NCBI GenBank assembly: GCA_036376215.1
Contig: DASVAT010000016.1
Location: 135,766 to 199,765 of the forward strand
Source: Solirubrobacterales bacterium
Lineage (GTDB): Bacteria > Actinomycetota > Thermoleophilia > Solirubrobacterales > 70-9
DNA length: 64,000 nucleotides
Direction of reading: 5' to 3'
The notes beneath the pieces are model-generated. The model saw nothing but the letters and a program-made list of their open reading frames with translations, made no database searches and had not been told where the DNA came from. Both the position numbers and the translations under genes were made by a program. Positions 1,936 through 17,123 of the stretch are shown here, in pieces. The first letter of the stretch is position 1. The number at the start of each line of letters is the position of its first letter.

Positions 1936-3076
1936 GGCCCGTCGAGTATGGCTCCGTCGAGGGAAGGACACGACCGAAGACGAAGTCGTAGAGATCGCGC
2001 CGGGCGAGCTGAGCGGTCTCTTCGCCGCCCCGCAGTGGCTGCGCGACCTCGGCGTCTCGGCATGGCTGCTGTTCGGCGTTGGCGCCGCCCTGGTGGCGGC
2101 GATCTGGTTGTTGTCGCTGACCGAGACGATCGTGATGCCGGTGATCACCGCGGGGATCATCGCCGCCGTCGCCGGGCCGCTGGTCGACCGGCTGCGCGGC
2201 GTCGGCATCCCACGGGGAATCGGCGCCGGCCTCGTCCTGGTGGCGATCGTCGCCATTGCCCTGGGGGTGGGCTACATCGTCCTCACCGGCATCGCCAGCC
2301 AGGCCGACAGCCTCTCGACCCGCCTGCAGGAAGGCGCCGCAGAGATCGAGTCGTGGGCCCACAGCCTCGGCGTCGAGGCGCCCACCGCGGCCGATGCCAA
2401 CGCGGAAGCGAGCGCCTCGATCAGCGCCGGGTTCCAGGCGCTCACGCAAGGGGTGCTGGGCGGCGTCGACAAGCTCGCCGGTCTCGCTGTCTTCCTCTCC
2501 TTCACCGCGCTCAGCCTCTTCTTCCTGCTCAAGGACGGCCCGCAGATCGGCGCCTTCGTCGAGCGCCACCTCGGGGTCCCGGTCCCGGTCGCGCACTCGA
2601 TCCTCGGCCGCGTCGCGGGCAGCATGCGCGGCTACTTCCTCGGGGTGACGATCGTCGCCGCCTGGAGCGCGCTGATCGTCGGTGTCGGGTCGCTGGTCCT
2701 GGGCGTCCCGCTCGCCGGGACCATCGCCGTCGTCACCTTCCTCGGCGGCTACGTCCCCTACATCGGCGCCTGGACCGCCGGCGGGTTCGCGGTCCTGATC
2801 GCACTCGGCGGCTCGGGCCCGGAGGCGGCGGGAGCGATGGCGGTCATCGTCCTGCTCGCCAACGGCGTCTTCCAACAGCTGGTCCAGCCGATCGCCTACG
2901 GGGCGGCGCTGAAGCTGCACCCGCTGGCGGTGCTGATCGCGACGATCGCCGGCGGCTGCCTGTTCGGCACCGTCGGCCTGGTCCTGGCGGCGCCGCTGCT
3001 CTCGGCCGCGGTGAAGATCACGGCGGACCTCAGCGCGGCGGTGGAGACGGAGGAGGAGGCCGAGGCCCCCTCCTAG
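1934..3076 (+). CDS. AI-2E family transporter (PerM/UPF0118-like permease)
   Basis: About 8 hydrophobic segments. The C-terminal pattern GGYVPYIGAW...LANGVFQQLVQPIAYG is typical of AI-2E transporters. The start is ambiguous (1913 or 1934). Confidence 0.8.
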   Translation: MARRVWLRRGKDTTEDEVVEIAPGELSGLFAAPQWLRDLGVSAWLLFGVGAALVAAIWLLSLTETIVMPVITAGIIAAVAGPLVDRLRGVGIPRGIGAGLVLVAIVAIALGVGYIVLTGIASQADSLSTRLQEGAAEIESWAHSLGVEAPTAADANAEASASISAGFQALTQGVLGGVDKLAGLAVFLSFTALSLFFLLKDGPQIGAFVERHLGVPVPVAHSILGRVAGSMRGYFLGVTIVAAWSALIVGVGSLVLGVPLAGTIAVVTFLGGYVPYIGAWTAGGFAVLIALGGSGPEAAGAMAVIVLLANGVFQQLVQPIAYGAALKLHPLAVLIATIAGGCLFGTVGLVLAAPLLSAAVKITADLSAAVETEEEAEAPS

Positions 3077-3083
3077 TCGGTGG

Positions 3084-3491
3084 CTATTCCTCCCAGCGGG
3101 CGGTCAGCTGGTAGATGATCGTGACGTCGAGGATGATCATCAGGAACGCCCACAGCGGCGCCGCGGGGAACCAGACGACCTGCGAGATGGCGTTGATCAT
3201 CACGAAGAAGATCGCCGCCCACCGGGCCCACTCGGCGCCGGCGAAGAGGCCGAGGCCGGTGCAGGCGATGATCGAGCCGAGGATCAGGTGAATCCATCCC
3301 CAGGTCGTGACGTCGGCGATGATCACTCCCTGGCCGCCGACGAAGACGATTTCGTCGTTGAGGATCCCGGCCAGGCCCCAAAGGGCGTCCAGCGATCCGA
3401 CGATGAACAAGAGGACGCCTGCGAAGACGGTCCAACCCGTCGGCTGGCGTTCCTCGACCCTGTGCCGTTCAGTGGCTCTGCTGCTCTCCAT
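3084..3491 (-). CDS. Small integral membrane protein (DUF7144-like)
   Basis: 135 aa with 4 TM segments. The FAGVLLFIVGSLDALWGLAGI and WGWIHLILG pattern is characteristic of this actinobacterial family. Confidence 0.7.
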   Translation of the reverse strand: MESSRATERHRVEERQPTGWTVFAGVLLFIVGSLDALWGLAGILNDEIVFVGGQGVIIADVTTWGWIHLILGSIIACTGLGLFAGAEWARWAAIFFVMINAISQVVWFPAAPLWAFLMIILDVTIIYQLTARWEE

Positions 3492-3651
3492 GTTGCTCTC
3501 CCTCCGGTTTGGTCTCTATCTGGTGGCAGACAGCGCCCCTACCGACAACAACACGCTGGATGCACGCAGACCATAGAACTCGCTTGATTCCCAAGCAACA
3601 ACTTCTCTGTCAAGAGTCGGCGTCCTGCGTGCGTCACCCTGGACAAACAGG

Positions 3652-4905
3652 ATGAAGCGCTCTCCGATCTACCTGGCTGTCCTGGCCGTCGTCGTCGCAG
3701 CGATGCCCCTGGTCGCCTGCGGCGGCGCGAACGACGGCGAAAGCGTCCCGCTCTCCCGCCCGGTCGAGAAGAGCCGCGTCCCGCTGCCCGCCGACTTTCC
3801 CTCCTGGCGATTTGAATCGCTGCGGCCCGCGCCACCCGGGCTCTTCGTGGTCACCTTCTCTAACCCCGCCGACAAGCGCCCCTGGGTGATCGTCTTCGAC
3901 GACGAGGGAGTGCCGCGCTGGTGGTACAACCCGGACACGCGGGCGCTCTGGGGTCAGGTCCTCGGCGACGGCAACCTCGTCTGGGCGCGGTCGTTCGGCG
4001 ACGGCTACGGCCTCGACCCGCGGATGGCGCACGAGGTCCGCACCGAGTCCGGCAAGCTCGTCCGCCTGGTCAGCACCGAGGGCTCGATCGTCGACGGCCA
4101 CGAGTACCGCGAGCTCCCCAACGGCAACGTCCTGCTCGACACCTACGTCCCGGAAACCGCCGACCTGCGCCGTTTCGGCGGCCCGAAGCTCGCGGCGATC
4201 GCCTCCGCCGAAGTCCAGGAAGTCGACCCCTCCGGCAAGGTCGTCTGGCACTGGAACTCCCGCGGGCACATCGGGTTGCGCGAGACCGGCCGCTGGTGGC
4301 GGAACGTGCTCAGCAACCCTCGCCGCCGCCTGCAACGCGAGATCTTCGACCCCGTCCACATCAACTCGATCGAGCCGCGCGGCGACGGCGAAGTCGTGAT
4401 CTCCACCCGCCACACCGACGCCGTCTACGGGATCGACCGCGCCAGCGGGGAGATCGCCTGGAAGCTGGGGGGCATCCGCACCGGCAAATCGCTGCGGGTG
4501 ACGGGGGACCCGGCGACGAAGCTGCTCGGGGGTCAGCACGACGCCCGCATCGACCGCCGCGGGCGCCTCACCGTCTTCGACAACGGCAAGGACCGGCCCC
4601 GCCGGCCCCGGGTCGTCTTCTACCGCCTCGACCTGGAGCAGCGGCGGGCCCTCTACCGCGGGCAGCTCAACGACCCCGAGGTGAGCCGCAGCCACTGCTG
4701 CGGCTCGGCCCGCGAACTGAGCGGCGGCGGCTGGCTGGTCAGCTGGGGCGACAACCCGCTGGTCACCGGATTCGACCGCGAGGGGAGGATCGCCTTCCGC
4801 CTCCACCTCCCGGCCTCGACCTTTCGCGCCGTCCCGGCCCCCGCGGGGGCGACCAGCGTGGCTCAGCTGCAGAGGGGGATGGCCGCTATGCGGGCCGGGC
4901 GATGA
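3652..4905 (+). CDS. Arylsulfotransferase (ASST)-family lipoprotein
   Basis: Signal peptide plus lipobox (PLVACGG). Beta-propeller-like HINSIEP...ISTRHTDAVYGIDRASGEIAWKLGG motif of the Arylsulfotran_2 family. Confidence 0.7.
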   Translation: MKRSPIYLAVLAVVVAAMPLVACGGANDGESVPLSRPVEKSRVPLPADFPSWRFESLRPAPPGLFVVTFSNPADKRPWVIVFDDEGVPRWWYNPDTRALWGQVLGDGNLVWARSFGDGYGLDPRMAHEVRTESGKLVRLVSTEGSIVDGHEYRELPNGNVLLDTYVPETADLRRFGGPKLAAIASAEVQEVDPSGKVVWHWNSRGHIGLRETGRWWRNVLSNPRRRLQREIFDPVHINSIEPRGDGEVVISTRHTDAVYGIDRASGEIAWKLGGIRTGKSLRVTGDPATKLLGGQHDARIDRRGRLTVFDNGKDRPRRPRVVFYRLDLEQRRALYRGQLNDPEVSRSHCCGSARELSGGGWLVSWGDNPLVTGFDREGRIAFRLHLPASTFRAVPAPAGATSVAQLQRGMAAMRAGR

Positions 4906-5782
4906 GCGGCTGGGGGCGCTGCTCCTCGCCTGCGCGCGAGGGGGGGAGGAGCAGGGCCGAGGCGCAGACGAGAGCGAAGGCGGTTGCCTGCAGGCCGATT
5001 CCCACCGCGCCGCTCGCCATCGGATCTCCGAAGACGAGGATGCCGCTGAGGATCTGGGCGGCGCTGGCGACGAGTCCCATCAGCCCGATCGTCTCGATCG
5101 CGCCGCCGCGCTGAAGGGCGGCGACGGCCGAGTACTGGGCCAGGGCCCCACAGGCGACGATCAGGGCGATCCACGGCGCCAGGACCGCGAGCGGGAGATC
5201 GCCCTCCCCGGTCAGGGCCTTGATCGCCACCCCGCCGAAGGCGAAGAGGGTGCCGGCGATGACCGCCAGCAGGGCGCCGCGGCGAATCGTGGAGCGCTGG
5301 TAGCCGATGGTCAGGGCGAGCGCCAGCAGCCCGAGGCCCCCCTCGAAGCCGAGGATCGCGGCGGGGGCGAACTGGGAGTGGCTGCCGTGGAAGCTCGGCA
5401 GGGTCAGGGCGAGGAGGACCAGGCCGATCCCGCCCAGCAGCAGGGCCAGCCACTGGCGCGGCTCGACGGAATGGCCGAAGAGCCGCTGCGAGAGGACGGC
5501 GAGGCTGACGGCGCCGCCGGCGAGCGCCGCCTGCACCAGCGAGATCGGCGCCATCGAGAGGGCCGCGACGTGGACCAGCCAGGCCACCGCCGCGGTGCCC
5601 CACCCGGCCGCGAACCACGGCGAGGCGGCGAGCCGGCGGGCGCTCTGCAGCGGCGCCTGGAGCCTCACCGGCGGGACCTGCTGGCAGCCGCGGTGCTTGA
5701 GCAGCGAGGCGAGGTTTGCCATCACCGCGCCGAGAAGGGCCAGGGCGATGCCGACTTCGACCGATCCAACCGCCGGGGTCAC
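4886..5782 (-). CDS. Polytopic membrane protein (DMT/EamA-like)
   Basis: The hydrophobic C-terminal ~298 aa of ORF 4886..6250. The GTG at 5782 overlaps the helicase stop (GTGA). The remainder of the long ORF is Arg/Pro-rich overlap with the helicase gene. Confidence 0.6.
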   Translation of the reverse strand: MTPAVGSVEVGIALALLGAVMANLASLLKHRGCQQVPPVRLQAPLQSARRLAASPWFAAGWGTAAVAWLVHVAALSMAPISLVQAALAGGAVSLAVLSQRLFGHSVEPRQWLALLLGGIGLVLLALTLPSFHGSHSQFAPAAILGFEGGLGLLALALTIGYQRSTIRRGALLAVIAGTLFAFGGVAIKALTGEGDLPLAVLAPWIALIVACGALAQYSAVAALQRGGAIETIGLMGLVASAAQILSGILVFGDPMASGAVGIGLQATAFALVCASALLLPPSRAGEEQRPQPLIARPA

Positions 5783-6927
5783 GACCTGGACGCCCCCTTG
5801 CGGCCACGCCGCCGGCCCTTCGGGGCGGGTCGCGAGCTGAGCTGCTTCGGACGGCCGCCGTGGGTCACCTCGAACTCCCGGACCAGGCCGAGGTTGCCCG
5901 CCATGCGGCGGACGTCGTCGGCCTGGTCGGCGAGGACGAAGCTGACGCCGGTGCCGCTGCGACCGGCCCGGCCGGTGCGGCCGACGCGGTGGACGTAGGC
6001 GTCGTGATCCTCCGGGGCGTCGTAGTTGATCACGTGGGTGATGCCCTCGACGTCGATGCCGCGGGCGGCGACGTCGGTGGCGACGAGAGCATCTACCTCG
6101 CCGTTCTCGAACCGCGCCAGGGCGCGTTCGCGCTGTCCCTGGCTCTTGTCGCCGTGCATCGCGACGGCCTCGACCTTGCGGCCGCGCAGTCGCTTGACCA
6201 GCCGGTCGGCGCCGCGCTTGGTGCGGACGAAGACGATCGTCGGCCCGCACTCGTCCTCACTCAGCTGGGCGACCAGGTGGTCGAGCTTCTCGCCCTGGCT
6301 CTCGACCGGGAGGAAGCGGTGCTCGATGTCGGCCTTCGCCTGCTTCGGCGCGTGGGTGTGGGTGCGGGCGTCGCGGGTGTAGGCCTTGGCGACCTTGCCG
6401 GTCGCGCCCTCGAGCGTCGCCGAGAAGAACAGGGTCTGCCGCTTGTCGGGCGTCTGTTTGACGATCCGGTCGACGGCCGGCTTGAAGCCCATGTCGAGCA
6501 TCCGGTCGGCCTCGTCGAGGACGAGCACGCGGACGTGCTTCAGGCTGACGACGCCGCGGGCGATCAGGTCCTCGAGGCGGCCGGGGGTGGCGACGACGAC
6601 GTCGGCCCTGCCGACGGCCTTGATCTGGGGACCGAACCCGACCCCGCCGTAGACGGCGGCGATCTTCAGCCCCTGGGTCTCGGCGAGGGGGCGGAGGTCT
6701 TCGACGATCTGACCGGCGAGCTCGCGGGTGGGGGCGAGGACCAGGGCGCCGATGCGTCCCTGCTCGGGGGAGAGTCGCTCGACCGTCGGGATGCCGAAGG
6801 CGAGCGTCTTGCCAGACCCGGTCGGGGACTGGACGAGGAGGTCATGCCCGGCGAGCGCGTCGCGGATGACCAGCTGCTGGACGGGGAACGGGGTGGTGAT
6901 CTCACGGCGCGCGAGCGCACGGATCAC
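5779..6927 (-). CDS. DEAD-box ATP-dependent RNA helicase
   Basis: Motifs SPTGSGKT (I), PTRELA (Ia), DEAD (LVLDEADRML), SAT and HRVGRTGRAG (VI). The real start is probably upstream, near 6966 (see finding). Confidence 0.95.
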   Translation of the reverse strand: MIRALARREITTPFPVQQLVIRDALAGHDLLVQSPTGSGKTLAFGIPTVERLSPEQGRIGALVLAPTRELAGQIVEDLRPLAETQGLKIAAVYGGVGFGPQIKAVGRADVVVATPGRLEDLIARGVVSLKHVRVLVLDEADRMLDMGFKPAVDRIVKQTPDKRQTLFFSATLEGATGKVAKAYTRDARTHTHAPKQAKADIEHRFLPVESQGEKLDHLVAQLSEDECGPTIVFVRTKRGADRLVKRLRGRKVEAVAMHGDKSQGQRERALARFENGEVDALVATDVAARGIDVEGITHVINYDAPEDHDAYVHRVGRTGRAGRSGTGVSFVLADQADDVRRMAGNLGLVREFEVTHGGRPKQLSSRPAPKGRRRGRKGASRS

Positions 6928-7275
6928 AGGTTGGGATATGCCGAGATCGGCAAACGAAACGGTTATGGAAGTGCTCCTTATTTGAACGCTAGGGAGATCC
7001 TGCGGCCCCTAGGCGCCGGATGGCACACGGAGGAAACGGAACCTCTCGGGATGGCGAATCGGCCAAGCCCGACCCAGTCACGGTAGCAGGCGACCTGGTT
7101 TCCGGTTGCCGGTCGAGGGGTACTTCACAAAAAGCATCCTGAACAGAATTCCTCGCAGCGCCACCAGTCGGAGGAAGGCTTTTCGGGCTCATCTGCAAGG
7201 CCTGGTGTCGCGCCGTCTCTCATCTCTGATTCGCGCCGATCTCGGGACTCGAACCCCCACTCAGGAGGAATCAAG

Positions 7276-8637: not shown

Positions 8638-9842
8638 CCGGCCACGTGGCGTGGACGGAGGCGCCTGCTCGCCAGCCTACGAGTCCCTCGGATCAGCGCA
8701 TAGGAGCCGAGGGCCAGCGTCAGGGTCCCGGTCACGGTCAGGCCCCAGCGGACGGGGATCGCCAGGTCGGTGGTCGAGAGCGAGCTCTGCAGGGCGACCA
8801 GGAACGGGATGTGGATCAGGTAGATCCAGAAGCTCGCGTCCGACAGGTAGCGCAGCACCCGCGACTCCTTGCGTACGTAGCGAGCCAGCACCCCCCAGAG
8901 GCCGAACAGGGTGAGCCAGCAGACGATGCCGACGGTGAACAGCCCGTAGAGGCGCAGCGCGTCGATTTCGGCAAGCACGCCCGGCGTGCCGACGTTGCCG
9001 GTGAAGTCGCCGTTGTCGTAGAAGAGGAGAAAGGCGGGAACCGCGATCGCCGCCCCGGCCGCGAGCCGCAGCCAGGCCCGGTGTTTCAGCTGCTCGATCA
9101 GCTCGCTCTGGCCGCTGAGCAGCCAGCCGAAGAGGAAGAAGAAGCTGTAGTAGGCGAAGAGGGTCGGGGCGGGGATCAGCGAGTTGGAAGCCGCCCCTCC
9201 CGCCACCCAGCCGGTCTTGGTGCTCAGGATCGCGGCGCTGATCGCCGCCAGGGCCGGCACCGCCCACCACGACCTCATCAGCTGGCCGAAGCCGCGGTTG
9301 ATCGCCGCTCCCAGCTGCGGCGCCCGCTGGATCGCCAGCCAGATCCCGATCGCGACCAGGGAGATCATCAGCAGGTAGGCGATGAACCAGAGGTGCCGCG
9401 GCGTCAGGCTGAAGACGTTGGCGAGGTCCAGTTCCCGTTTCGGCGGCAGCTCGCCCTTGCGCGGCCAGAGGGCAGCCGCGCCGATGACGAGGAGGTTGGC
9501 GAGCGGCACCACCGTCAGCATCCCGACGAACAGCGGCACGCCGAGCCGGCGAAAGCGGGCGCGCAGCTGCCGGGCGGCGGTGGACCGGCGCAGCGCGCTG
9601 GCGGCCAGGAAGCCGGAGATGGCGAAGAACAGGGGCATGTGCCAGGCGTGGACGAACCAGACGACGGCGTCGACGATCCTCGGGTCCCCGTCGCCCTTCT
9701 GGATGTAGCGAGCGGCGTGGTAGGGGATCAGGAGCAGAATCGCCGAGACCCGGATGGCATCCAGGTGGTGACTACGCCGGGCTCCGGACTGCGCACGCAG
9801 GGCTTTCTCCTCGATGGATGGTCGCCACGTGAAGTCACGCAC
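8634..9842 (-). CDS. Acyltransferase family 3 (AT3) membrane protein
   Basis: About 10 TM segments. The N-terminal HLDAIRVSAILLLIPYH motif is typical of AT3/OafA-type O-acyltransferases. Confidence 0.8.
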   Translation of the reverse strand: MRDFTWRPSIEEKALRAQSGARRSHHLDAIRVSAILLLIPYHAARYIQKGDGDPRIVDAVVWFVHAWHMPLFFAISGFLAASALRRSTAARQLRARFRRLGVPLFVGMLTVVPLANLLVIGAAALWPRKGELPPKRELDLANVFSLTPRHLWFIAYLLMISLVAIGIWLAIQRAPQLGAAINRGFGQLMRSWWAVPALAAISAAILSTKTGWVAGGAASNSLIPAPTLFAYYSFFFLFGWLLSGQSELIEQLKHRAWLRLAAGAAIAVPAFLLFYDNGDFTGNVGTPGVLAEIDALRLYGLFTVGIVCWLTLFGLWGVLARYVRKESRVLRYLSDASFWIYLIHIPFLVALQSSLSTTDLAIPVRWGLTVTGTLTLALGSYALIRGTRRLASRRLRPRHVAG

Positions 9843-9956
9843 TCCGCTGCCCCGTCGCGATGTTCGGACGGGACCTCGGAGCTATGCCCTCCGCGAACCA
9901 CCTACCCTGCAAACCGCGTTTGACACGAGGAAGCCCCGCCTTATCTGTCGGCCTCC

Positions 9957-10415
9957 TCAGAGGAGATCGGACGGGTCCAGCACGAACACCTCGCACATCA
10001 GGTCGGGCTCCTGCTGGTTGCCGCTCATGAAGCCGATCACCTTGCGGCCGGTCGCCCTTTCGACGACCTCCTCGAAGCGCTCGCGCATCAGCTCCTGGAA
10101 CGCCATCCGCTGCTCGATGACAGCGGAGCCGCGGCCCCCGTCGAGGAGGGTCTGCTCGACCTGGGTGAAGCCACCGCGCAGGACGCAGACGACGAGGTCG
10201 TCCTGGTAGTAGGACTTGGCCTGGGTGGGACCGCGCCCGTAGAACTCCTTCAGCAGCGCGACCAGCCCGTCGGAGATCGCCGTCAGCTCGTCGCCGTGGC
10301 GGCGCTTCGCTTCCGCTGCCGTCTGGCTCTGGGCTGGGTCGAGATCGGGTCGAGGGATACGGCGATGGTAGACCAGCGCGCTACGCTGGTCTAACCGCTC
10401 GTTGGGTTCTTCCAC
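9957..10415 (-). CDS. DUF2294 domain protein
   Basis: ISDGLVALLKEFYGRGPTQAKSYY...VVCVLRGGFTQVEQTL...R.AFQELMRERFEEVVERATGRKV matches the DUF2294 pattern. Confidence 0.7.
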   Translation of the reverse strand: MEEPNERLDQRSALVYHRRIPRPDLDPAQSQTAAEAKRRHGDELTAISDGLVALLKEFYGRGPTQAKSYYQDDLVVCVLRGGFTQVEQTLLDGGRGSAVIEQRMAFQELMRERFEEVVERATGRKVIGFMSGNQQEPDLMCEVFVLDPSDLL

Positions 10416-10465
10416 CCTCTGCCTCGCGCGCGCTCCTAGTCAGAGGACGAGAAAGAAGGCCCGAC

Positions 10466-10837
10466 ATGTCGGCCCCGATCCCACCCCTGAACGGCGACGA
10501 GTTGCTCGCCGCGGTGACCGATTCGATGGTCGCCCTGCACGAGCGCTACTACCACCGCGCCCCGGTGAGCGCCAAGACCCAGATGCTCGGGGAGGACCTC
10601 CTCGCCTGCGTGATGGGCGGCGTCTACACCGAGGTCGAGCAGACGATGATCGAGCTGCAGCGCGGCACCCTGGTACAGGAAACCCGCAGCGCCTTTCAGC
10701 AGGCGATGCAGCAGAGGTTCATCGACGAGGTGGAGCGTCTCTCGGGGCGCGAGGTGATCGCCTTCATATCCAATTCCCACGTCGGCCCCGACATGGAGGT
10801 CGAGCTGTTCATGTTCCGGGACCCGGTCCCTGTCTAG
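10466..10837 (+). CDS. DUF2294 domain protein (divergent paralogue)
   Basis: VTDSMVALHERYYHRAPVSAKTQM...LACVMGGVYTEVEQTM...RSAFQQAMQQRFIDEVERLSGREV aligns with the neighbouring protein. Confidence 0.7.
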   Translation: MSAPIPPLNGDELLAAVTDSMVALHERYYHRAPVSAKTQMLGEDLLACVMGGVYTEVEQTMIELQRGTLVQETRSAFQQAMQQRFIDEVERLSGREVIAFISNSHVGPDMEVELFMFRDPVPV

Positions 10838-10956
10838 GGGTCGACGGGAGCACAGGGCTCCGCTAATCTGATTCGAGGAGGGCATCACTGCGGTCGGCGC
10901 TCAGCCGGCAACACCAAGTGACTTCCGGACCCAGCTGTCGAATCGAGGAGTCCGAA

Positions 10957-11361
10957 ATGTCCCTTCCCACCGCTTCCCTCACTTCATCCAGCGGCCCCGC
11001 TGTCGCGTCGCCGCCCCTCTTCTCCTGCACCCGCAGGGCCGAGGGTCGAGGCTCGATTCGGCTCGTCCTCGCCGGCGAGCTGGACCTCAGCGCCCGCGCC
11101 CACTTCGAGGAGGCGCTGAAGGACGCCCAGTCCGACGCGAACCGCGTCGTCCTCGACCTGCAGGCGCTGACGCTGATCGACTGCGCCTCCCTCTCCGTCC
11201 TCTTCGACGCCGCCCTCGAAGCTCGCCGCCAGGACGCGGTGCTCATCTTGCTCGAGCCTCGCGGGCAGGTGCGGCGCGTGCTCGATCTCACCGGTGCCCC
11301 CAACGGGGTCGCGGTCCTGGAGCGCAGCGACGGCGAACGGCGGGCCGCCGGCGCTTTCTGA
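10957..11361 (+). CDS. STAS-domain protein (anti-sigma-factor antagonist-like)
   Basis: The pattern LAGELDLSARAHFEEAL...VVLDLQALTLIDCASLSVL...RRVLDLTG is typical of SpoIIAA/STAS. GAGGAG lies 6 nt before the ATG at 10957. Confidence 0.75.
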   Translation: MSLPTASLTSSSGPAVASPPLFSCTRRAEGRGSIRLVLAGELDLSARAHFEEALKDAQSDANRVVLDLQALTLIDCASLSVLFDAALEARRQDAVLILLEPRGQVRRVLDLTGAPNGVAVLERSDGERRAAGAF

Positions 11362-11439
11362 GAACACCCGGCCACGGACCAGGGCGATCATGGAGAGCAA
11401 AGGCTCGACTCCCCATCTCGCCCTGCTGCTGGCGGCGCG

Positions 11440-11679
11440 ATGTTCGTCTGCGTGATCGACACGTCGCTGATGAACGATCGAGGCGCTGGTCTCCCGAGCG
11501 CGGAGCGCGGCTGGTATCTCGTCATCCCGCTGATGTTCGCCGGGGCTGGGCTCAACGATGACGCCCGACCCCTGGCCCTCCAGGTCGCCCTTCTCGTCCC
11601 TCTCCTGGCTGCGCTGATCGGCCTTCTCAGCTCCATTCGAATGATGCGCCTTCCCGACCCCGCGCCATTGGCGCGGTAG
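11440..11679 (+). CDS. Hypothetical small hydrophobic protein
   Basis: 79 aa with two hydrophobic stretches. My hand count gives about 80% GC at third codon positions in this frame. No family recognised. Confidence 0.4.
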   Translation: MFVCVIDTSLMNDRGAGLPSAERGWYLVIPLMFAGAGLNDDARPLALQVALLVPLLAALIGLLSSIRMMRLPDPAPLAR

Positions 11680-11736
11680 ATCCCTGCCCACGCATCCTTG
11701 CGCGACGCGGCCGGCCTCTCTGGCATCATCGAGGAC

Positions 11737-11937
11737 GTGGAGCGGCCCCACGTAAAGCTGAGCGGAGACGTCGAAGGTGCCTACGTCGTTGAGGAGACGC
11801 GGAGCGATGGGCGTCTCGTGTTTTCGCCAGATACGTCTGCTCAGGCCATCATGGAGCGTTTGGCCCATGAGCCAACGACCCTCGCAGAGTTCGAAGCCGA
11901 GTACGGGGCCGTGAAGCCGCCTGACGGCGAGGGGTAG
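11737..11937 (+). CDS. Small acidic protein, putative antitoxin (cassette 1)
   Basis: Paralogue of 12790..13008 (shared HV[KR]LSG, G.YVV.E.R.DG.L, PDTS..AI.ER, C-terminal PPDGEG). I chose the GTG at 11737 by alignment with the paralogue N-terminus; the ORF track starts at 11698. Confidence 0.6.
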   Translation: MERPHVKLSGDVEGAYVVEETRSDGRLVFSPDTSAQAIMERLAHEPTTLAEFEAEYGAVKPPDGEG

Positions 11938-11939
11938 TC

Positions 11940-12689
11940 GTGCCGATCAAGCGAGGCTTCGCTTCCGTCGCCTTCGACGAGCTGGCCTGGCATGAGGATC
12001 TGCGCCAGGCAGCGCGAAGCGAATCGGCGAAGAAGCTCGCTTCCGGCTGGAACGCGAGGGTCAAGCAGTCGATGCGCTCTTCGCCTGCGACGAGGATGCG
12101 CGATGGGACCAGTCTCCCTGGCTGCGTCAAGGTCTACCTTCCTCCTCCCGGCGGACCTCTCGGCCTCGTCTTCCGACTCGCCAAAGGGAAGGACGGGCGG
12201 CTCCATCTCGACCATCTGGCATTCGGCGTGCGACACATATACTGGCGGACCCAGTTGATCTCGGATATTGACGGCCTCGTCGCACGGGCGGAAGCTCAGA
12301 CCGACATGGAAGTCCAGTCTGACTACGCCAAATATTTGACGATTCGGGTCCTTGGGCTAGTCGAGCAGGTAGTGGCAGAGATCGTTCTGGCTCACGTCAG
12401 CGCCCAAGCGAGTCCGCCCGTGCTCAGCCACACGACCTGGAAAATGAAGCGCTTCCAGAATCCGAACCCCCAACGTCTAATCGAGCTTGTTGGGTCGTTC
12501 GACCGAAGGTGGGGGGACTCCCTCGAATCCGCCCTAACTAGTAGTTCAGAGCGCGAGGCGCTGGGAAGTATCCGTTCGCAGCGGAATCGCATCGCGCATG
12601 GTGAACCGACGACGATCTCGCTGGTCCAAGTCAAGGGCTACTTTGCCGAAATCAAGTCGATGCTCAATCGGGTCGCAGCTCCTTTCTAG
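11940..12689 (+). CDS. Chimeric protein: RelE/ParE-like N-terminal region fused to a HEPN-like (RNRIAH) C-terminal domain
   Basis: The N-terminal ~98 aa are paralogous to 13012..13374 (RDGTSLPGCVKVYLPPPGGPLGLVFR...LAFGVRH). From about 12237 the GC content drops, and the sequence carries the Rx4H motif RNRIAHG (12582-12602). The GTG start lies 2 nt after the upstream stop. Confidence 0.65.
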   Translation: MPIKRGFASVAFDELAWHEDLRQAARSESAKKLASGWNARVKQSMRSSPATRMRDGTSLPGCVKVYLPPPGGPLGLVFRLAKGKDGRLHLDHLAFGVRHIYWRTQLISDIDGLVARAEAQTDMEVQSDYAKYLTIRVLGLVEQVVAEIVLAHVSAQASPPVLSHTTWKMKRFQNPNPQRLIELVGSFDRRWGDSLESALTSSSEREALGSIRSQRNRIAHGEPTTISLVQVKGYFAEIKSMLNRVAAPF

Positions 12690-12789
12690 GTGCCGAACTG
12701 AGAGGGGGGTCTTCCGCATGAACTTGAGCCGGACGGCCGCTGGGCCTGCGGTTTCAGGATCGGGAGCGTCGTAGATTACGATTCATGGG

Positions 12790-13008
12790 ATGGAGCCTCC
12801 ACGCGACCACGTCCGCCTCAGCGGCGAGCGAGCCGGCGATTACGTCGTCACCGAGGAGCGGCCCGACGGTTCGCTCACCCTCGTGCCCGATACCTCATGG
12901 AAGGCCATCAAGGAGCGCTCCGGCGCCCGGGATGCCACCAAGGAGGAGTGGGAGAGCTTCATGCAGGAGCATGGCCCCAACATGCTCCCCCCCGACGGCG
13001 AGGGGTAG
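12790..13008 (+). CDS. Small acidic protein, putative antitoxin (cassette 2)
   Basis: Paralogue of 11737..11937, with an identical 15-nt 3' end (gacggcgaggggtag). Confidence 0.6.
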   Translation: MEPPRDHVRLSGERAGDYVVTEERPDGSLTLVPDTSWKAIKERSGARDATKEEWESFMQEHGPNMLPPDGEG

Positions 13009-13011
13009 CCG

Positions 13012-13374
13012 TTGACCGACAAGTTGCGGTTCCCGGCTCGCTTCGACGCCGACGCTTTTCGCGAGGACATGGCGGGAGCGACGCCAGCCGGCCGAAGCGC
13101 CGCCGAGATCGCCAAGCGCGACTACGAAGCTAACGGCGTTCCCATGTCGGATCTCCGGTCCTGCGACCCGGAAGGACGCGACGGAACGGTTCTTCCTCAG
13201 TGCCTCAAGCTCTATCTCCCACCGCCGGTGGGGCGTTTCGGGATGGTCTTCAGGTTCGTGGTCGCTAACGACGCGCCTCGACTCGACTACCTCGCCTTCG
13301 GCGTCCGCCATCACCCCGCCGGCTCGAACGCACCGACGGTCTACGAGATCGCCCACCGTCGACTGCACGACTAG
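13012..13374 (+). CDS. RelE/ParE-superfamily-like putative toxin (cassette 2)
   Basis: The TTG start lies 3 nt after the upstream stop. LPQCLKLYLPPPVGRFGMVFRFV...RLDYLAFGVRHHPAGSNAPTVYEIAHRRL resembles the RelE/ParE beta-sheet and C-terminal pattern. This assignment is an inference. Confidence 0.55.
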   Translation: MTDKLRFPARFDADAFREDMAGATPAGRSAAEIAKRDYEANGVPMSDLRSCDPEGRDGTVLPQCLKLYLPPPVGRFGMVFRFVVANDAPRLDYLAFGVRHHPAGSNAPTVYEIAHRRLHD

Positions 13375-13504
13375 GACTCGTCTTAAGCAGCGAGGCCGCA
13401 GGACTGTGGCACCGACTGTGTGGCACGAGGCCAAGAACGGCAGCATGTAGGCGGGGCGGGCAAGGCGCAGTCGCGCGCATTTGGCTCTACGAAGCCCCCA
13501 CAAC

Positions 13505-13534
13505 AGAAAACGCCCCGGCGGGGGAGCCGGGGCG
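13505..13534 (-). terminator. Rho-independent terminator with no annotated gene upstream
   Basis: On the minus strand: cgccccggc / tccccc / gccggggcg followed by ttttct. Confidence 0.65.
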
Positions 13535-13931
13535 CTTCTGGGGTTACTACAGGGAGGAGAGATATGTATCTCTATATATGTGTGGATCCGTGGGAGGTAG
13601 GTGAGCCCGGTTTATGTCGAGTGCGTCGCTGTGGGAAGCAGCGAGGCGATAGTCGACGCGGGGTTCAGCCTTGAAGTCTTTGGTTGATCTCCTTGATCGG
13701 TCTTCCCTTGCGAATCCTTGAACAGCGTACGAACGTATGTGCGACTTGTGTGTGAGTGGGGTCACAGAGATCCTGCAATTGACGGACTCTGCGGCCTCTC
13801 TACCCGATTTGCCCTAGACGACCAGATCAAATTTGGTGATCGGTGGGGCGGCGGGCTCGGCTGAGTGTCGCATCGCATTCTTCAGCTCGAATAAAAGGCC
13901 AGTCCGGGGGCCTCGCTGTAGCTTTCGGCGG

Positions 13932-14720
13932 GTGAGAAAGTCCCGGATAGACGCGGTTTTGGCCGACCGCGGGATCTTTCCGTCCCGCTCGGCGGCGGCG
14001 GGCGCCGTGCGGGCCGGCGAGGTCCGCATCGGCCAGGACGGCCCGGTGGCGCTGCGGCCGAGCCAGCTGGTCGAGCCGGACGCGAACCTGATCGTCGCCG
14101 AGGGCCCGCGCTACGTCTCCCGCGGCGGCACCAAGCTGGAGAACGCGCTCGAGGCGCTGGGGATCGACGTCGCCGGGCGGGGCTGCCTCGACGTCGGCGC
14201 CTCGACCGGCGGCTTCACCGACTGCCTGCTGCAGCGCGGCGCCACCCGGGTGGCCGCGGTCGACGTGGCCTACGGGCAGCTCGACGTGCGCCTGCGGGAG
14301 GATCCACGTGTGCACGCGATCGAGAGGCTGAACGCGCGGGAGCTGGCGCCGGCGAACCTGCCCTTCGTGCCGTCGCTCGCCACGGTCGACGTCTCCTTCA
14401 TCTCCCTGGCCAAGGTGCTGCCGGCGGTGAGCCGCTGCCTGGAGCCCGGAGGGGAGATCCTGGCGATGGTCAAGCCGCAGTTCGAGCTTGGCCGGGACCG
14501 CGTCGGAAAGGGGGTCGTGCGCGACCCCGCCGACCGTCGCGAGGCGATCCTTGCCGTCGCCCTCGCGGCCCGCGATCTGGGCCTGGCGGTGCGCGGCTTC
14601 GCCTCCTCCGGCCTGCCGGGTCCGAAGGGGAACCGGGAGACGTTCGTCTGGTGCGGAGGGAGCGGCGCCGAGGTCGACGACCTCGAAGGGGCGATCGCCG
14701 CCGTCGAGGGGGACGAGTGA
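13932..14720 (+). CDS. tlyA: TlyA-family rRNA (cytidine-2'-O)-methyltransferase
   Basis: S4-like N-terminus RIDAVLADRG, SAM motif DVGASTGGFTD, and MVKPQFE. The GTG at 13932 gives the conserved N-terminus. Confidence 0.9.
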   Translation: MRKSRIDAVLADRGIFPSRSAAAGAVRAGEVRIGQDGPVALRPSQLVEPDANLIVAEGPRYVSRGGTKLENALEALGIDVAGRGCLDVGASTGGFTDCLLQRGATRVAAVDVAYGQLDVRLREDPRVHAIERLNARELAPANLPFVPSLATVDVSFISLAKVLPAVSRCLEPGGEILAMVKPQFELGRDRVGKGVVRDPADRREAILAVALAARDLGLAVRGFASSGLPGPKGNRETFVWCGGSGAEVDDLEGAIAAVEGDE

Positions 14721-15559
14721 AGACCGCCGCCCTGATCACCCACTCGCACCCGCCGAGCGCCTCCGAAGCGGTCGCCGTCGCGGCCGAGGTCGCCCACGAG
14801 GCCGGCTGGCGCCTGGCGGCGACCGAGCAGGAGCTGGAAAAGCACGGCGCCGCCGGCGAGGGCGTCGACGTCACCGCCGAACACACGGTCCCCGACATCT
14901 GCCTCGTGCTGGGCGGCGACGGCTCGATCCTCCACGCGCTGCGCCGCTACGCGCACACCGAAGTCCCCGTCTTCGGCGTCAACTTCGGGACTGTCGGGTT
15001 CCTCGCCGCGGTCGAGCGCGACCAGGCGGCCGAGGGAATCCGCCGCGCGCTCGCCGGCGACTACGAGACGATCCACCTGCCCGGCCTCGAGGTGAAGGTC
15101 GACGGCACCGAGCAGGTGGGGCTGAACGACATCACCCTCGCCCGGCGGCCGCACGACCGCGTCGCCGAGCTCAGCTACCGGATCGCCGGCGAGGAGGTGG
15201 GGCACGTCCGCTGCGACGGCCTCGTCGCCGCCACGCCGGTCGGTTCCACCGGCTACAACCTCGCCAACCAGGGACCGATCCTGGCCTGGGGCGTGAAGGG
15301 CTACGTCGTCAGCTACATCTCGCCGCACTCGCTGACCGCGCGGGCGCTGGTCGTCGCCCCCGGCGACGTCCTCCACGTCGGCAACGCACCCGAACGCGAG
15401 CCGGTCGAGGTCGCGGTCGACGGCGGCAAGATCGCCGACCTCGCCGCCGGCGGTTCGCTGGAGATCCGCTTCCTCGACTCGGTGAGCCGCCTGGCCCAGC
15501 TCCCGGGGACGAGCTTCTACCAGCGCATACGCGAGAAGTTCGGGCATTTAGCGGTCTAA
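14717..15559 (+). CDS. nadK: NAD+ kinase
   Basis: GGDG motif (VLGGDGSILHA), NFGTVGFL, and TPVGSTGYNLA. GTGA overlap with the tlyA stop. Confidence 0.9.
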   Translation: MKTAALITHSHPPSASEAVAVAAEVAHEAGWRLAATEQELEKHGAAGEGVDVTAEHTVPDICLVLGGDGSILHALRRYAHTEVPVFGVNFGTVGFLAAVERDQAAEGIRRALAGDYETIHLPGLEVKVDGTEQVGLNDITLARRPHDRVAELSYRIAGEEVGHVRCDGLVAATPVGSTGYNLANQGPILAWGVKGYVVSYISPHSLTARALVVAPGDVLHVGNAPEREPVEVAVDGGKIADLAAGGSLEIRFLDSVSRLAQLPGTSFYQRIREKFGHLAV

Positions 15560-15605
15560 GGCGACTTCCTCAGCCGAGATAGACGGTTCTCTAGGGTCTG
15601 CCGCC

Positions 15606-17123
15606 ATGGAGCGCAAGTGGTGGACCCTGGTCCTGGTCTCGGTCGCGACGTTCATGCTGCTGCTCGACGTCACCGTCGTCAACGTCGCCCTGCCGGACAT
15701 CCAGCGGGAATTGAACGCCAGCCTCTCGAGCCTGCAGTGGGTGGTCGACGCCTACTCGCTGATGCTCGCCGCCTTCCTGCTGACCGCCGGCTCGCTCGGC
15801 GACCGGCTGGGCCGGCGGCGGGTGTTCACGATCGGTTTCGGCGTCTTCACCCTGGCCTCGTTCCTCTGCGGGATCGCCGAGGACCCGACCCTGCTCAACC
15901 TGGCGCGCGGGCTGCAGGGCGTCGGCGGGGCCGGCATGTTCGCCACCTCGCTGGCCCTGATCGGCCAGGAGTTCCACGGCAAGGACCGGGCGACGGCGTT
16001 CGGTGTCTGGGGGGCGACCGTCGGCGGCGCCGTCGCCGTCGGCCCGCTGATCGGCGGCGTCGTCACCGAGAGCCTCGGCTGGGAGTGGATCTTCTTCATC
16101 AACGTCCCGATCGGGATCGCGGCGATGGTCCTGACTGAGCGCCAGATCGTCAACGTCTCGGCGCAGGACCCGGAGCCGATCGACTACCCCGGCCTCGTCA
16201 CCTTCTCCTCGGCGCTCTTCCTCCTCATCTTCGGCCTGATCCGCGGCAATCCCGAGGGCTGGGGGAGCCCGCTGATCCTCGCCTGCCTGATCGGCGCCGC
16301 CGTCCTGATGGCGCTCTTCGTCGCGATCGAGCGCCGCAGCGGCCACCCGATGCTGGACCTGACGCTGTTCCGCAAACCCGCCTTCAACGGGGTCTCGGCG
16401 GTCGCCTTCTTCCTCTCGGCGGGGATGTTCGCCCTCTTCCTCTACCTGACGATCTACATGCAGGGGGTGCTCGACTACTCGCCGCTCGAGGCCGGCCTCC
16501 GCTTCCTGCCGCTGACCGTCCTCGGCTTCGTCGTCGCGCCGATCTCCGGCGCGCTCTCGCACCGGGTCCCGATCAGGATCCTGCTGGGCGTGGGCCTGGC
16601 CACCGTCGGCGTCGGCCTGCTGCTGATGCACGGCGTCGAGGTCGACTCGACCTGGACGACGCTGCTGGTCGGCTTCCTCCTCGCCGGGATCGGGATCGGG
16701 ACGACCAACCCTGGCATCGGACAGGCTGCGATCGCCGTCGTCCCGGTGGAGAAATCGGGGATGGGATCGGGGATCAACACGACCTTCCGCCAGGTCGGGA
16801 TCGCGACCGGCGTCGCCGGGCTCGGCGCCGTCTTCCAGGGTCGCGTCGACTCGAAGCTGAGCGAATTGCTGCCCAACGCCCCCGACGGGTTCGGCGAAGC
16901 GGTCGCCTCGGGCGGCTCACGGGCGGTATCCGAACTACAGTTGCCGCCCGGGCTCCACGTCAAGGCGACCCACGCCGCCGACGTCGCCTTCGTCGGCGCC
17001 TTCAACGACATCATCCTGATCGCGGCGATCGGCTCCTTCCTCGGCGCCGTCCTCGGGTTTCTTCTCGTGAGATCCGAGGACTTTGTTCAACCGACCGACG
17101 GCCCGAGCGAGCCGTCTGGGTAG
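15606..17123 (+). CDS. MFS transporter, DHA2 (EmrB/QacA-like, 14 TM)
   Basis: MLLLDVTVVNVALPDIQ, GSLGDRLGRRRVF (motif A) and a 14-TM layout. Confidence 0.9.
   Translation: MERKWWTLVLVSVATFMLLLDVTVVNVALPDIQRELNASLSSLQWVVDAYSLMLAAFLLTAGSLGDRLGRRRVFTIGFGVFTLASFLCGIAEDPTLLNLARGLQGVGGAGMFATSLALIGQEFHGKDRATAFGVWGATVGGAVAVGPLIGGVVTESLGWEWIFFINVPIGIAAMVLTERQIVNVSAQDPEPIDYPGLVTFSSALFLLIFGLIRGNPEGWGSPLILACLIGAAVLMALFVAIERRSGHPMLDLTLFRKPAFNGVSAVAFFLSAGMFALFLYLTIYMQGVLDYSPLEAGLRFLPLTVLGFVVAPISGALSHRVPIRILLGVGLATVGVGLLLMHGVEVDSTWTTLLVGFLLAGIGIGTTNPGIGQAAIAVVPVEKSGMGSGINTTFRQVGIATGVAGLGAVFQGRVDSKLSELLPNAPDGFGEAVASGGSRAVSELQLPPGLHVKATHAADVAFVGAFNDIILIAAIGSFLGAVLGFLLVRSEDFVQPTDGPSEPSG

Follow-up and report, generated by a model that had tools for sequence, protein, structure and literature searches.

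Do two short, consecutive and unannotated gene pairs constitute type II toxin-antitoxin (TA) systems, and are both copies still intact? The pairs are located at positions 11737-13374 of a 64,000-nucleotide stretch from a Solirubrobacterales bacterium (GTDB lineage Bacteria; Actinomycetota; Thermoleophilia; Solirubrobacterales; 70-9), namely positions 135,766 to 199,765 of the forward strand of contig DASVAT010000016.1 in assembly GCA_036376215.1. This whole stretch is hereafter the window, and all positions refer to it. An earlier note, made by eye on the letters of this DNA, described the pairs as two diverged tandem cassettes, each with a small open reading frame (ORF) and a toxin-like ORF behind it, that follow type II TA logic and could not be placed in a named family. 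The whole is best explained, and in our judgement probably correctly, by an intact RelE-like type II TA bicistron in cassette 2 and a decayed paralogue of it in cassette 1.

Both cassettes are encoded on the forward strand. Cassette 1 comprises an intact antitoxin-like gene with a GTG start (11737-11937, 66 amino acids) and, after a gap of 2 nucleotides (nt), a 249-codon ORF with its GTG at 11940. Cassette 2 comprises an antitoxin-like gene (12790-13008) for an acidic protein of 72 amino acids with the C-terminus PPDGEG and, 3 nt further on, a toxin-like gene with a TTG start (13012-13374, 120 amino acids). The small proteins align over their full length with 50% identity (BLASTP E 1e-17); the 249- and 120-residue downstream products are 45% identical over only ~91 aligned residues (residues 12-99 of ORF 1; E 4e-17). 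The 15 nt that end both small ORFs (11923-11937 and 12994-13008) are identical and read gacggcgaggggtag. Directly 5' of each downstream start both cassettes share GGCGAGGGG, which resembles a Shine-Dalgarno sequence; such a role may be part of the reason for the strong conservation of the C-terminal D-G-E-G. The earlier note had the paralogy, the four ORFs with their coordinates, the 15-nt identity and the gaps right. In an alignment of the small-protein family (A3) two subtypes are distinguished, one with a K-E-E-W segment (cassette 2 type) and one without it (cassette 1 type). Judged by this alignment, each cassette is a separate subtype that is also present in other genomes. A recent tandem duplication in place is ruled out, as the cassettes are of different subtypes that occur singly and in reverse order in relatives.

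The nature of the cassette 2 downstream protein is indicated by its predicted structure. An AlphaFold2 model of the 120-residue protein, calculated with 60 homologues as input, reaches a predicted local distance difference test score (pLDDT) of 92.7 and a predicted template modelling score (pTM) of 0.88. Its topology is alpha-alpha-beta-beta-beta-alpha, with helices at residues 13-22 and 25-41, strands at 64-69, 76-85 and 88-98, and a last helix at 110-119. Foldseek against the PDB returned RelE, HigB, YoeB or YoeB/ParE structures at all of ranks 1-10 and unrelated noise from rank 11. These ten include RelE of T. thermophilus (2khe), E. coli RelE, ribosome-bound RelE, M. tuberculosis HigB1 (7awk), an A. 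tumefaciens YoeB/ParE toxin (6n90), S. aureus YoeB and V. cholerae HigB2; the best is 2khe (E 2.8e-3, probability 1.0, template modelling scores 0.48/0.61). The family of this protein counts 394 relatives at 90% clustering in a word-indexed search and 510 representatives at 50% clustering in an exhaustive search with a hidden Markov model (HMM; E <= 1e-3), and the names of its database entries seen are all 'hypothetical protein'. The residues K66, Y68, G77, R99, H100, Y111 and R117 are family-invariant and all present in the cassette 2 protein; K66, H100, Y111 and R117 are invariant or nearly so in the whole toxin family. Against E. coli RelE, hhalign aligned 89 of the 95 RelE residues to the broad family profile (E 0.0015), pairing K66 with K52, R99 with R81, Y111 with Y87 and R117 with R93, and setting ...GVRH...VYEIAHRRL against RelE ...GKRERSEVYSEAVKRIL. 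Based on the AlphaFold2 model, Foldseek and hhalign, we place the 120-residue protein in the RelE/ParE fold superfamily as a predicted member. The earlier note had suspected a RelE/ParE pattern in the downstream ORF; the model, the ten structural matches and the alignment of the VYEIAHRRL motif all point the same way.

The small proteins form a family of 118 clusters without names or domains. The AlphaFold2 monomer model of the 72-residue protein is of moderate confidence (pLDDT 73.5, pTM 0.36) and possesses three short beta-strands (residues 8-31), followed by two helices (37-44 and 51-61). Forty small-protein homologues yielded no Pfam match at E <= 1, neither sequence nor family profile matched a PDB entry, and Foldseek with the model gave noise only (best E 0.84), with no AbrB, MazE or SpoVT structure among it. 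A weak AbrB/MazE likeness, proposed in the earlier note, finds no support in the Pfam and Foldseek results, although a dimeric fold is conceivable, given a monomer model of moderate confidence (pLDDT 73.5). The accompanying statement that the small protein is unlike Phd/YefM, ribbon-helix-helix (RHH) and helix-turn-helix (HTH) antitoxins holds, as the present tests place it in none of them.

The two genes travel together. Of 97 toxin-HMM matches at 93 loci, 96 are immediately preceded, on the same strand, by a match to the small-protein HMM; the remaining one covers the second half of a toxin gene broken by a frameshift. On four unrelated long contigs (L001-L004) a gap of 3-6 nt separates the small ORF from the toxin homologue behind it, in neighbourhoods that differ from each other and contain a transposase, integrases, a TIR-domain gene, a relaxase and ordinary metabolic genes. 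A scan of one genome per species recovered 188 relatives, nearly all from Solirubrobacterales metagenome-assembled genomes and often two or three per genome. Tandem arrays occur elsewhere too: locus L018 has two cassettes (3779-5054), and L054 at least four diverged cassettes within 5 kb (2277-7133), so that local amplification and diversification look like a general habit of the family. Contig CAVUST010000001.1 (L033, L051 and L073) carries three cassettes within 30 kb. Both ORFs show the excess of third-codon-position changes expected for translated genes; in comparison with L006, changes at codon positions 1/2/3 number 0/1/10 in the small ORF and 9/6/28 in the toxin, and both cassette 2 ORFs are under purifying selection. 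Small gene and toxin have diverged in concert (Mantel r 0.70, reached by 0 of 999 permutations). The gene pair is an unnamed family, almost confined to Solirubrobacterales, multi-copy, and placed in changing and often mobile neighbourhoods. The TA logic of the earlier note is supported for the family by this linkage, the tight spacing, the copy numbers and the variable contexts, and the synteny in other genomes that it proposed to look for is present.

Several results weigh against a RelE-like TA system in cassette 2. The 120-residue protein has no match to Pfam, NCBIfam or PADLOC at E <= 1 that would link it to a named family, and none to PDB sequences by phmmer or family profile search. The 72- and 66-residue small proteins are equally without a match in Pfam, NCBIfam and PADLOC, so that the HEPN domain of cassette 1 (see below) is the one profile match obtained for the two cassettes. 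Sixty-four diverse toxin homologues matched no RelE/ParE-type or TA model of Pfam at E <= 1, and no sequence-profile link leads to any named RelE/ParE, HigB, YoeB or YafQ family; together with the Pfam result for the 40 antitoxin homologues, this agrees with the view that the pair belongs to no named TA family. The ten Foldseek matches range from E 2.8e-3 to 0.54 and from probability 0.25 to 1.0, none reaching 1e-3, and the weakness of these E-values means that the relationship to RelE is distant. The hhalign probability to E. coli RelE is just 17%, and the positions of RelE K54 and R61 are taken by Y68 and G77, which are not basic. The putative antitoxin lacks a DNA-binding fold recognisable by Pfam, PDB or Foldseek searches, in a model of pTM 0.36. 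Finally, a tblastn search of sequenced plasmid and phage collections with the toxin gave no match.

Two other readings of the intact pair draw on the same data. The toxin could be a gyrase poison of ParE type, with the same fold, DNA gyrase as its target and no catalytic chemistry. The fold found here is common to ParE and RelE, 6n90 among the top matches is annotated YoeB/ParE, the RelE residues R61 and K54 are not conserved in the family, and the toxin model has a long N-terminal helical hairpin (residues 13-41). A hairpin of this kind is typical of ParE proteins. However, ribosome-dependent ribonucleases (RNases; RelE, HigB, YoeB) make up nine of the top ten structural matches and no canonical ParE structure is among them; moreover, the invariant or near-invariant K66, H100, Y111 and R117 appear to sit at catalytic positions of RelE and YoeB, residues for which ParE has no use. 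We regard a ParE-type poison as unlikely and favour the RNase branch with moderate confidence. Alternatively, the pair might be no toxin system at all, but a non-toxic two-protein unit with the mere look of a TA operon, e.g. an RNA-binding protein and a small regulator that goes with it. This would suit a small protein without a known antitoxin fold, its stronger conservation than that of the toxin in close relatives (100% against 87% identity to L006; unusual for antitoxins), and the single fixed chromosomal site upstream of tlyA that cassettes occupy in this clade. It sits badly with a multi-copy family in unrelated neighbourhoods beside integrases and transposases, with a fold that is that of a toxin superfamily, and with toxin genes that are repeatedly broken behind an intact upstream gene (in the window, L010, P0269, P0272 and L024), as expected if the product is harmful; we hold such a unit to be quite improbable.

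How would the intact cassette operate? Upstream of cassette 2 a conserved promoter-like region (12745-12789, forward strand) was delimited in an alignment of the window with 10 relatives. It reads GTTTCAGGATcGGGAGCGTCGTAGATTACGATTCATGGG and contains a palindrome, TCGTA-gat-TACGA (TCGTAgatTACGA), over the -10-like box TAGATT. The block ending ...GCGTCGTAGATTACGATTCATGGG-ATG is conserved in close relatives, and a GTCGTAnATTA core is kept in more distant ones; the palindrome is a possible operator of an autoregulated promoter. For a RelE-like bicistron we infer toxicity, RNase activity, neutralisation and autoregulation along the following lines. The small acidic protein would be translated first from cassette 2, and the last codons of its gene, GGC GAG GGG TAG, would double as a Shine-Dalgarno-like sequence for the TTG gene 3 nt on. 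By analogy with RelE, YoeB and HigB, the toxin would cleave mRNA on the ribosome by means of the invariant Lys66, Arg99/His100 and Tyr111. The small protein would bind the toxin directly with its helical C-terminal half and so neutralise it, and would probably also repress the operon at the palindrome overlapping the -10-like box.

Cassette 1 is a different case. The earlier note counted its long ORF as a second toxin-like copy, but it is not a working one: the ORF combines a frameshifted, 3'-truncated toxin remnant (11940-12238, codons 1-99 of 249) with a 5'-truncated HEPN gene of the RiboL-PSP type (12239-12689) in the same frame, both on the forward strand. Residues 100-244 match Pfam HEPN_RiboL-PSP (PF18735) with 52.3 bits (gathering score 28.4; E 8.8e-14), the Rx4H motif is present as RNRIAH (12582-12599, residues 215-220), and G+C content is 0.56-0.60 over the HEPN part vs ~0.66 before it. 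The toxin part was aligned as DNA to the intact orthologue L018:4686-5054 (122 amino acids, ending ...GETVYQLAHRRLNR) and to L010. It has lost 7 nt after 12005 and 2 nt after 12101; the 96 nt between both deletions are read out of frame, which scrambles residues ~23-54, and the two deletions together restore the frame. The ancestral frame between them still spells GSAKRIGEEARFRLEREGQAVDALFACDEDAR. The match to the toxin stops after ...LAFGVRH (12238); the last ~22 codons are gone, and with them the C-terminal helix that bears the conserved Tyr and Arg. The small protein upstream retains 92% identity to its L010 orthologue and 89% to that of L018.

The HEPN part is 98% identical to P0240, a stand-alone 152-residue protein of L006. 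Among the HEPN relatives listed, 26 of 27 stand alone with 145-156 amino acids, one is a 140-residue variant without the motif, and the toxin-HEPN fusion was found by homology search in this window alone. According to blastn breakpoints, homology to the stand-alone genes of L006, L007 and L008 begins at 12248, at about codon 7; the junction comprises 6-9 nt, and the HEPN start and first 5-7 codons are gone. HEPN homologues are normally located 6 nt behind a DUF262 gene for ~378 amino acids (L006-L008, L094-L097), and no DUF262 gene is present in the 64-kb window. For the HEPN_RiboL-PSP family an 'operon with ParB' context or a fusion to the L-PSP domain has been noted (Anantharaman et al. 2013, PMC3710099), and the DUF262-HEPN context in relatives agrees with the former. 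A rearrangement has probably joined the decayed toxin 1 in frame to an HEPN RNase gene that lacks both its start and the DUF262 partner usual for such genes. That HEPN and cassette 2 were inserted as a block into toxin 1 while it was still intact is ruled out, with no 3' remainder of toxin 1 downstream and a different breakpoint in L010. In a generic scan of 11300-13900 the sole sigma-70-like promoter match, CTGGCA-16 nt-TATACT (12216-12243), lies exactly on the toxin 1/HEPN junction, and the rearrangement may have created a -10 box there.

Cassette 1 is hence decayed, with an intact antitoxin-like gene in front of a toxin gene that is frameshifted, truncated at its 3' end and fused to an HEPN fragment. 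The same toxin subtype has decayed independently in L010, where cassette 1 stands alone upstream of tlyA: its toxin gene carries a 1-nt insertion near the start and an internal deletion in its 3' part, and the small gene is intact. The toxin homologues P0269, P0272 and L024 (4001-4359) also appear frameshifted. A TA relationship predicts just such a pattern, in which the downstream gene is lost time and again and its upstream partner is kept. In P0269 and P0272 the shift occurs at the same point (after ...KNKD and ...RNKQ, respectively) and the downstream text is toxin in another frame; this could reflect a slippery run, recurrent inactivation or sequencing error. P0273 (167 amino acids) is another chimera, with its first 78 residues from a cassette 1-type toxin joined to a DUF1524 segment (the C-terminal part of GmrSD, PF07510), which means that recombination between toxin 1 genes and defence genes of GmrSD type has happened more than once.

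The stretch between an acyltransferase gene and tlyA, in which both cassettes are located, is a variable site where relatives carry different cassette combinations. Close relatives possess cassette 2 alone (L014-L016) or a decayed cassette 1 (L010). In L006 the order is MpsC - DUF262/GmrSD_N - HEPN - small protein - 120-residue protein - tlyA - nadK, and in L018 cassette 2 comes first, followed by cassette 1 in intact form and a gene for a membrane protein. A hairpin element of 62-64 nt, CACAACAGAAAACGCCCCGGCGGGGGAGCCGGGGCGCTTCTGGGGTTACTACAGGGAGGAGAGA (CACAACAGAAAACGCCCCGCCGGGGGAGGCGGGGCGCTTCTGGGGTTACTACAGGGAGGAGAGA), is sharp-edged and always precedes the tlyA leader; the window has one copy, the tlyA-proximal one (13500-13563, forward strand), 3' of the cassettes. 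Elsewhere the element forms direct repeats that flank inserted modules, with copies at 6644-6707 and ~9425-9490 in L006, ~3140-3203 and 4484-4547 in L016, ~4369-4432 and 6034-6097 in L018, and ~3456-3519 and 5894-5957 in L075. A search of 9000-16000, hairpin element and leader included, against Rfam found no RNA family. The element may be a terminator as well as a recombination or insertion boundary; a boundary of the att or integron kind is conceivable as well, or simply a terminator that is shared and thereby promotes recombination.

The chimeric ORF and its site admit further readings. The 249-residue product might be a working new toxin, an HEPN RNase coupled to, and possibly controlled by, the antitoxin of cassette 1. 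The ORF is open from 11940 to 12689 with a gap of only 2 nt to the small ORF, its HEPN part keeps RNRIAH and shares 98% identity with a stand-alone homologue, and two deletions that restore the frame mean that the ORF was not simply abandoned. However, 98% identity indicates a recent event, after which an open frame says little on selection. Thirty-two codons are scrambled and the C-terminal helix surface is gone, which makes antitoxin binding doubtful; in addition, HEPN lacks its first 5-7 codons as well as its DUF262 partner, and the fusion is restricted to this window among HEPN relatives that, as listed, otherwise stand alone. A working chimera is, in our estimate, decidedly unlikely. An even smaller chance is given to a metagenome assembly artefact that produced the toxin 1/HEPN junction, and perhaps both deletions, by joining L010-like and L006-like strains. 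The junction is known from a single assembled contig, the only one with the chimeric protein on record, and both parental arrangements are present in close relatives at the same chromosomal site. Yet assemblers join at shared sequence, and no repeat is common to toxin 1 and HEPN at the breakpoint; neither parent gives a clean match to 12229-12248, and the flanks differ by 3-15% from both relatives, so that the window is no mosaic of those exact strains. More far-reaching, and a long shot, is a dedicated cassette-exchange locus at tlyA, where TA cassettes, DUF262-HEPN modules and the membrane protein gene would be swapped at the 62-nt hairpin in an integron- or att-like manner, with no integrase in sight, and where the chimera, itself a product of the shuffling, would still be translated under control of the cassette 1 antitoxin. 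If true, this would be a case from nature in which an orphan antitoxin has acquired a new toxin.

Two neighbouring segments of the variable site deserve mention. The leader between the hairpin and tlyA (13564-13832) has a low G+C content (~0.55-0.57), is ~86-88% conserved in relatives and contains a short ORF starting MYLYICVDPWEV, with GGGAGGAG before it. Upstream of the cassettes, 9957-10415 (reverse strand) and 10466-10837 (forward strand) are divergent MpsC/DUF2294-like paralogues of 41-45% identity, followed by a STAS-domain-like ORF (10918-11361, forward strand). The block is part of the variable region, and L010 and L018 lack it at this site.

Taken as an intact RelE-like bicistron next to a decayed paralogue, the locus would represent a new family of a familiar kind rather than a new kind of system, and it overturns nothing in current understanding. 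The unannotated pair (~500 clusters at 50% identity) would be a lineage-restricted branch of RelE/ParE with an antitoxin that matches no known class, and one more case of antitoxin modularity. Its recognition improves the annotation of Solirubrobacterales genomes, which derive mostly from uncultured soil bacteria. The decayed cassette illustrates TA erosion, in which the toxin is lost first and the antitoxin retained, and a single chromosomal hot spot appears to be where DUF262-HEPN defence genes and TA cassettes are shuffled. The locus is of value for cataloguing, and perhaps for its hairpin-bounded cassette site.

Among known systems, modules of DUF262 (GmrSD_N / ParB-like) and RiboL-PSP-HEPN genes are the closest to the second half of ORF 1, whose C-terminal 146 residues are a bona fide HEPN domain with Rx4H; the HEPN gene of such a module in L006, at the same chromosomal site, is the one that is 98% identical to the window's HEPN part. 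In contrast to these modules, the window has neither a DUF262 gene nor an HEPN start codon, and HEPN is read as a fusion. For the small protein, AbrB, MazE and SpoVT offer a superficial likeness: its opening short beta-strands, including ...GDYVVTEERPDGSLTLVP, recall half of a swapped-hairpin barrel, and a helical, acidic tail follows. Unlike AbrB and MazE, its beta region covers just ~25 residues, and no MazE_antitoxin or AbrB model of Pfam matches any of the 40 homologues. By the tests run it likewise differs from RelB and ParD (RHH), Phd/YefM and HigA (HTH).

The likeness of cassette 2 is to RelE/RelB-type systems. Unlike named RelE-type toxins, the cassette 2 toxin is detected by no RelE, ParE, HigB, YoeB or YafQ model of Pfam or NCBIfam. 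It also differs from RelE in a longer N-terminal hairpin, with an additional loop (42-60, ~20 residues) in front of the sheet, in 9 residues inserted ahead of the last helix and in the replacement of K54 and R61 by Y68 and G77, and its invariant His100 after Arg99 brings it closer to YoeB than to RelE. What it shares with RelE/RelB-type systems is the order of genes, with the antitoxin first and the toxin 2-6 nt later, the multi-copy, mobile-element-associated occurrence, and a toxin of ~100-120 amino acids in which two helices at the N-terminus precede an antiparallel sheet of three strands and a last helix at the C-terminus. The RelE/ParE superfamily (E. coli RelE, 2khe, 7awk, YoeB) is the source of all best structural matches to this toxin, and the toxin motif G-x-R-H...V-Y-x-x-A-x-R-R-L aligns with G-K-R-E-R-S-E-V-Y-S-E-A-V-K-R-I-L of RelE.

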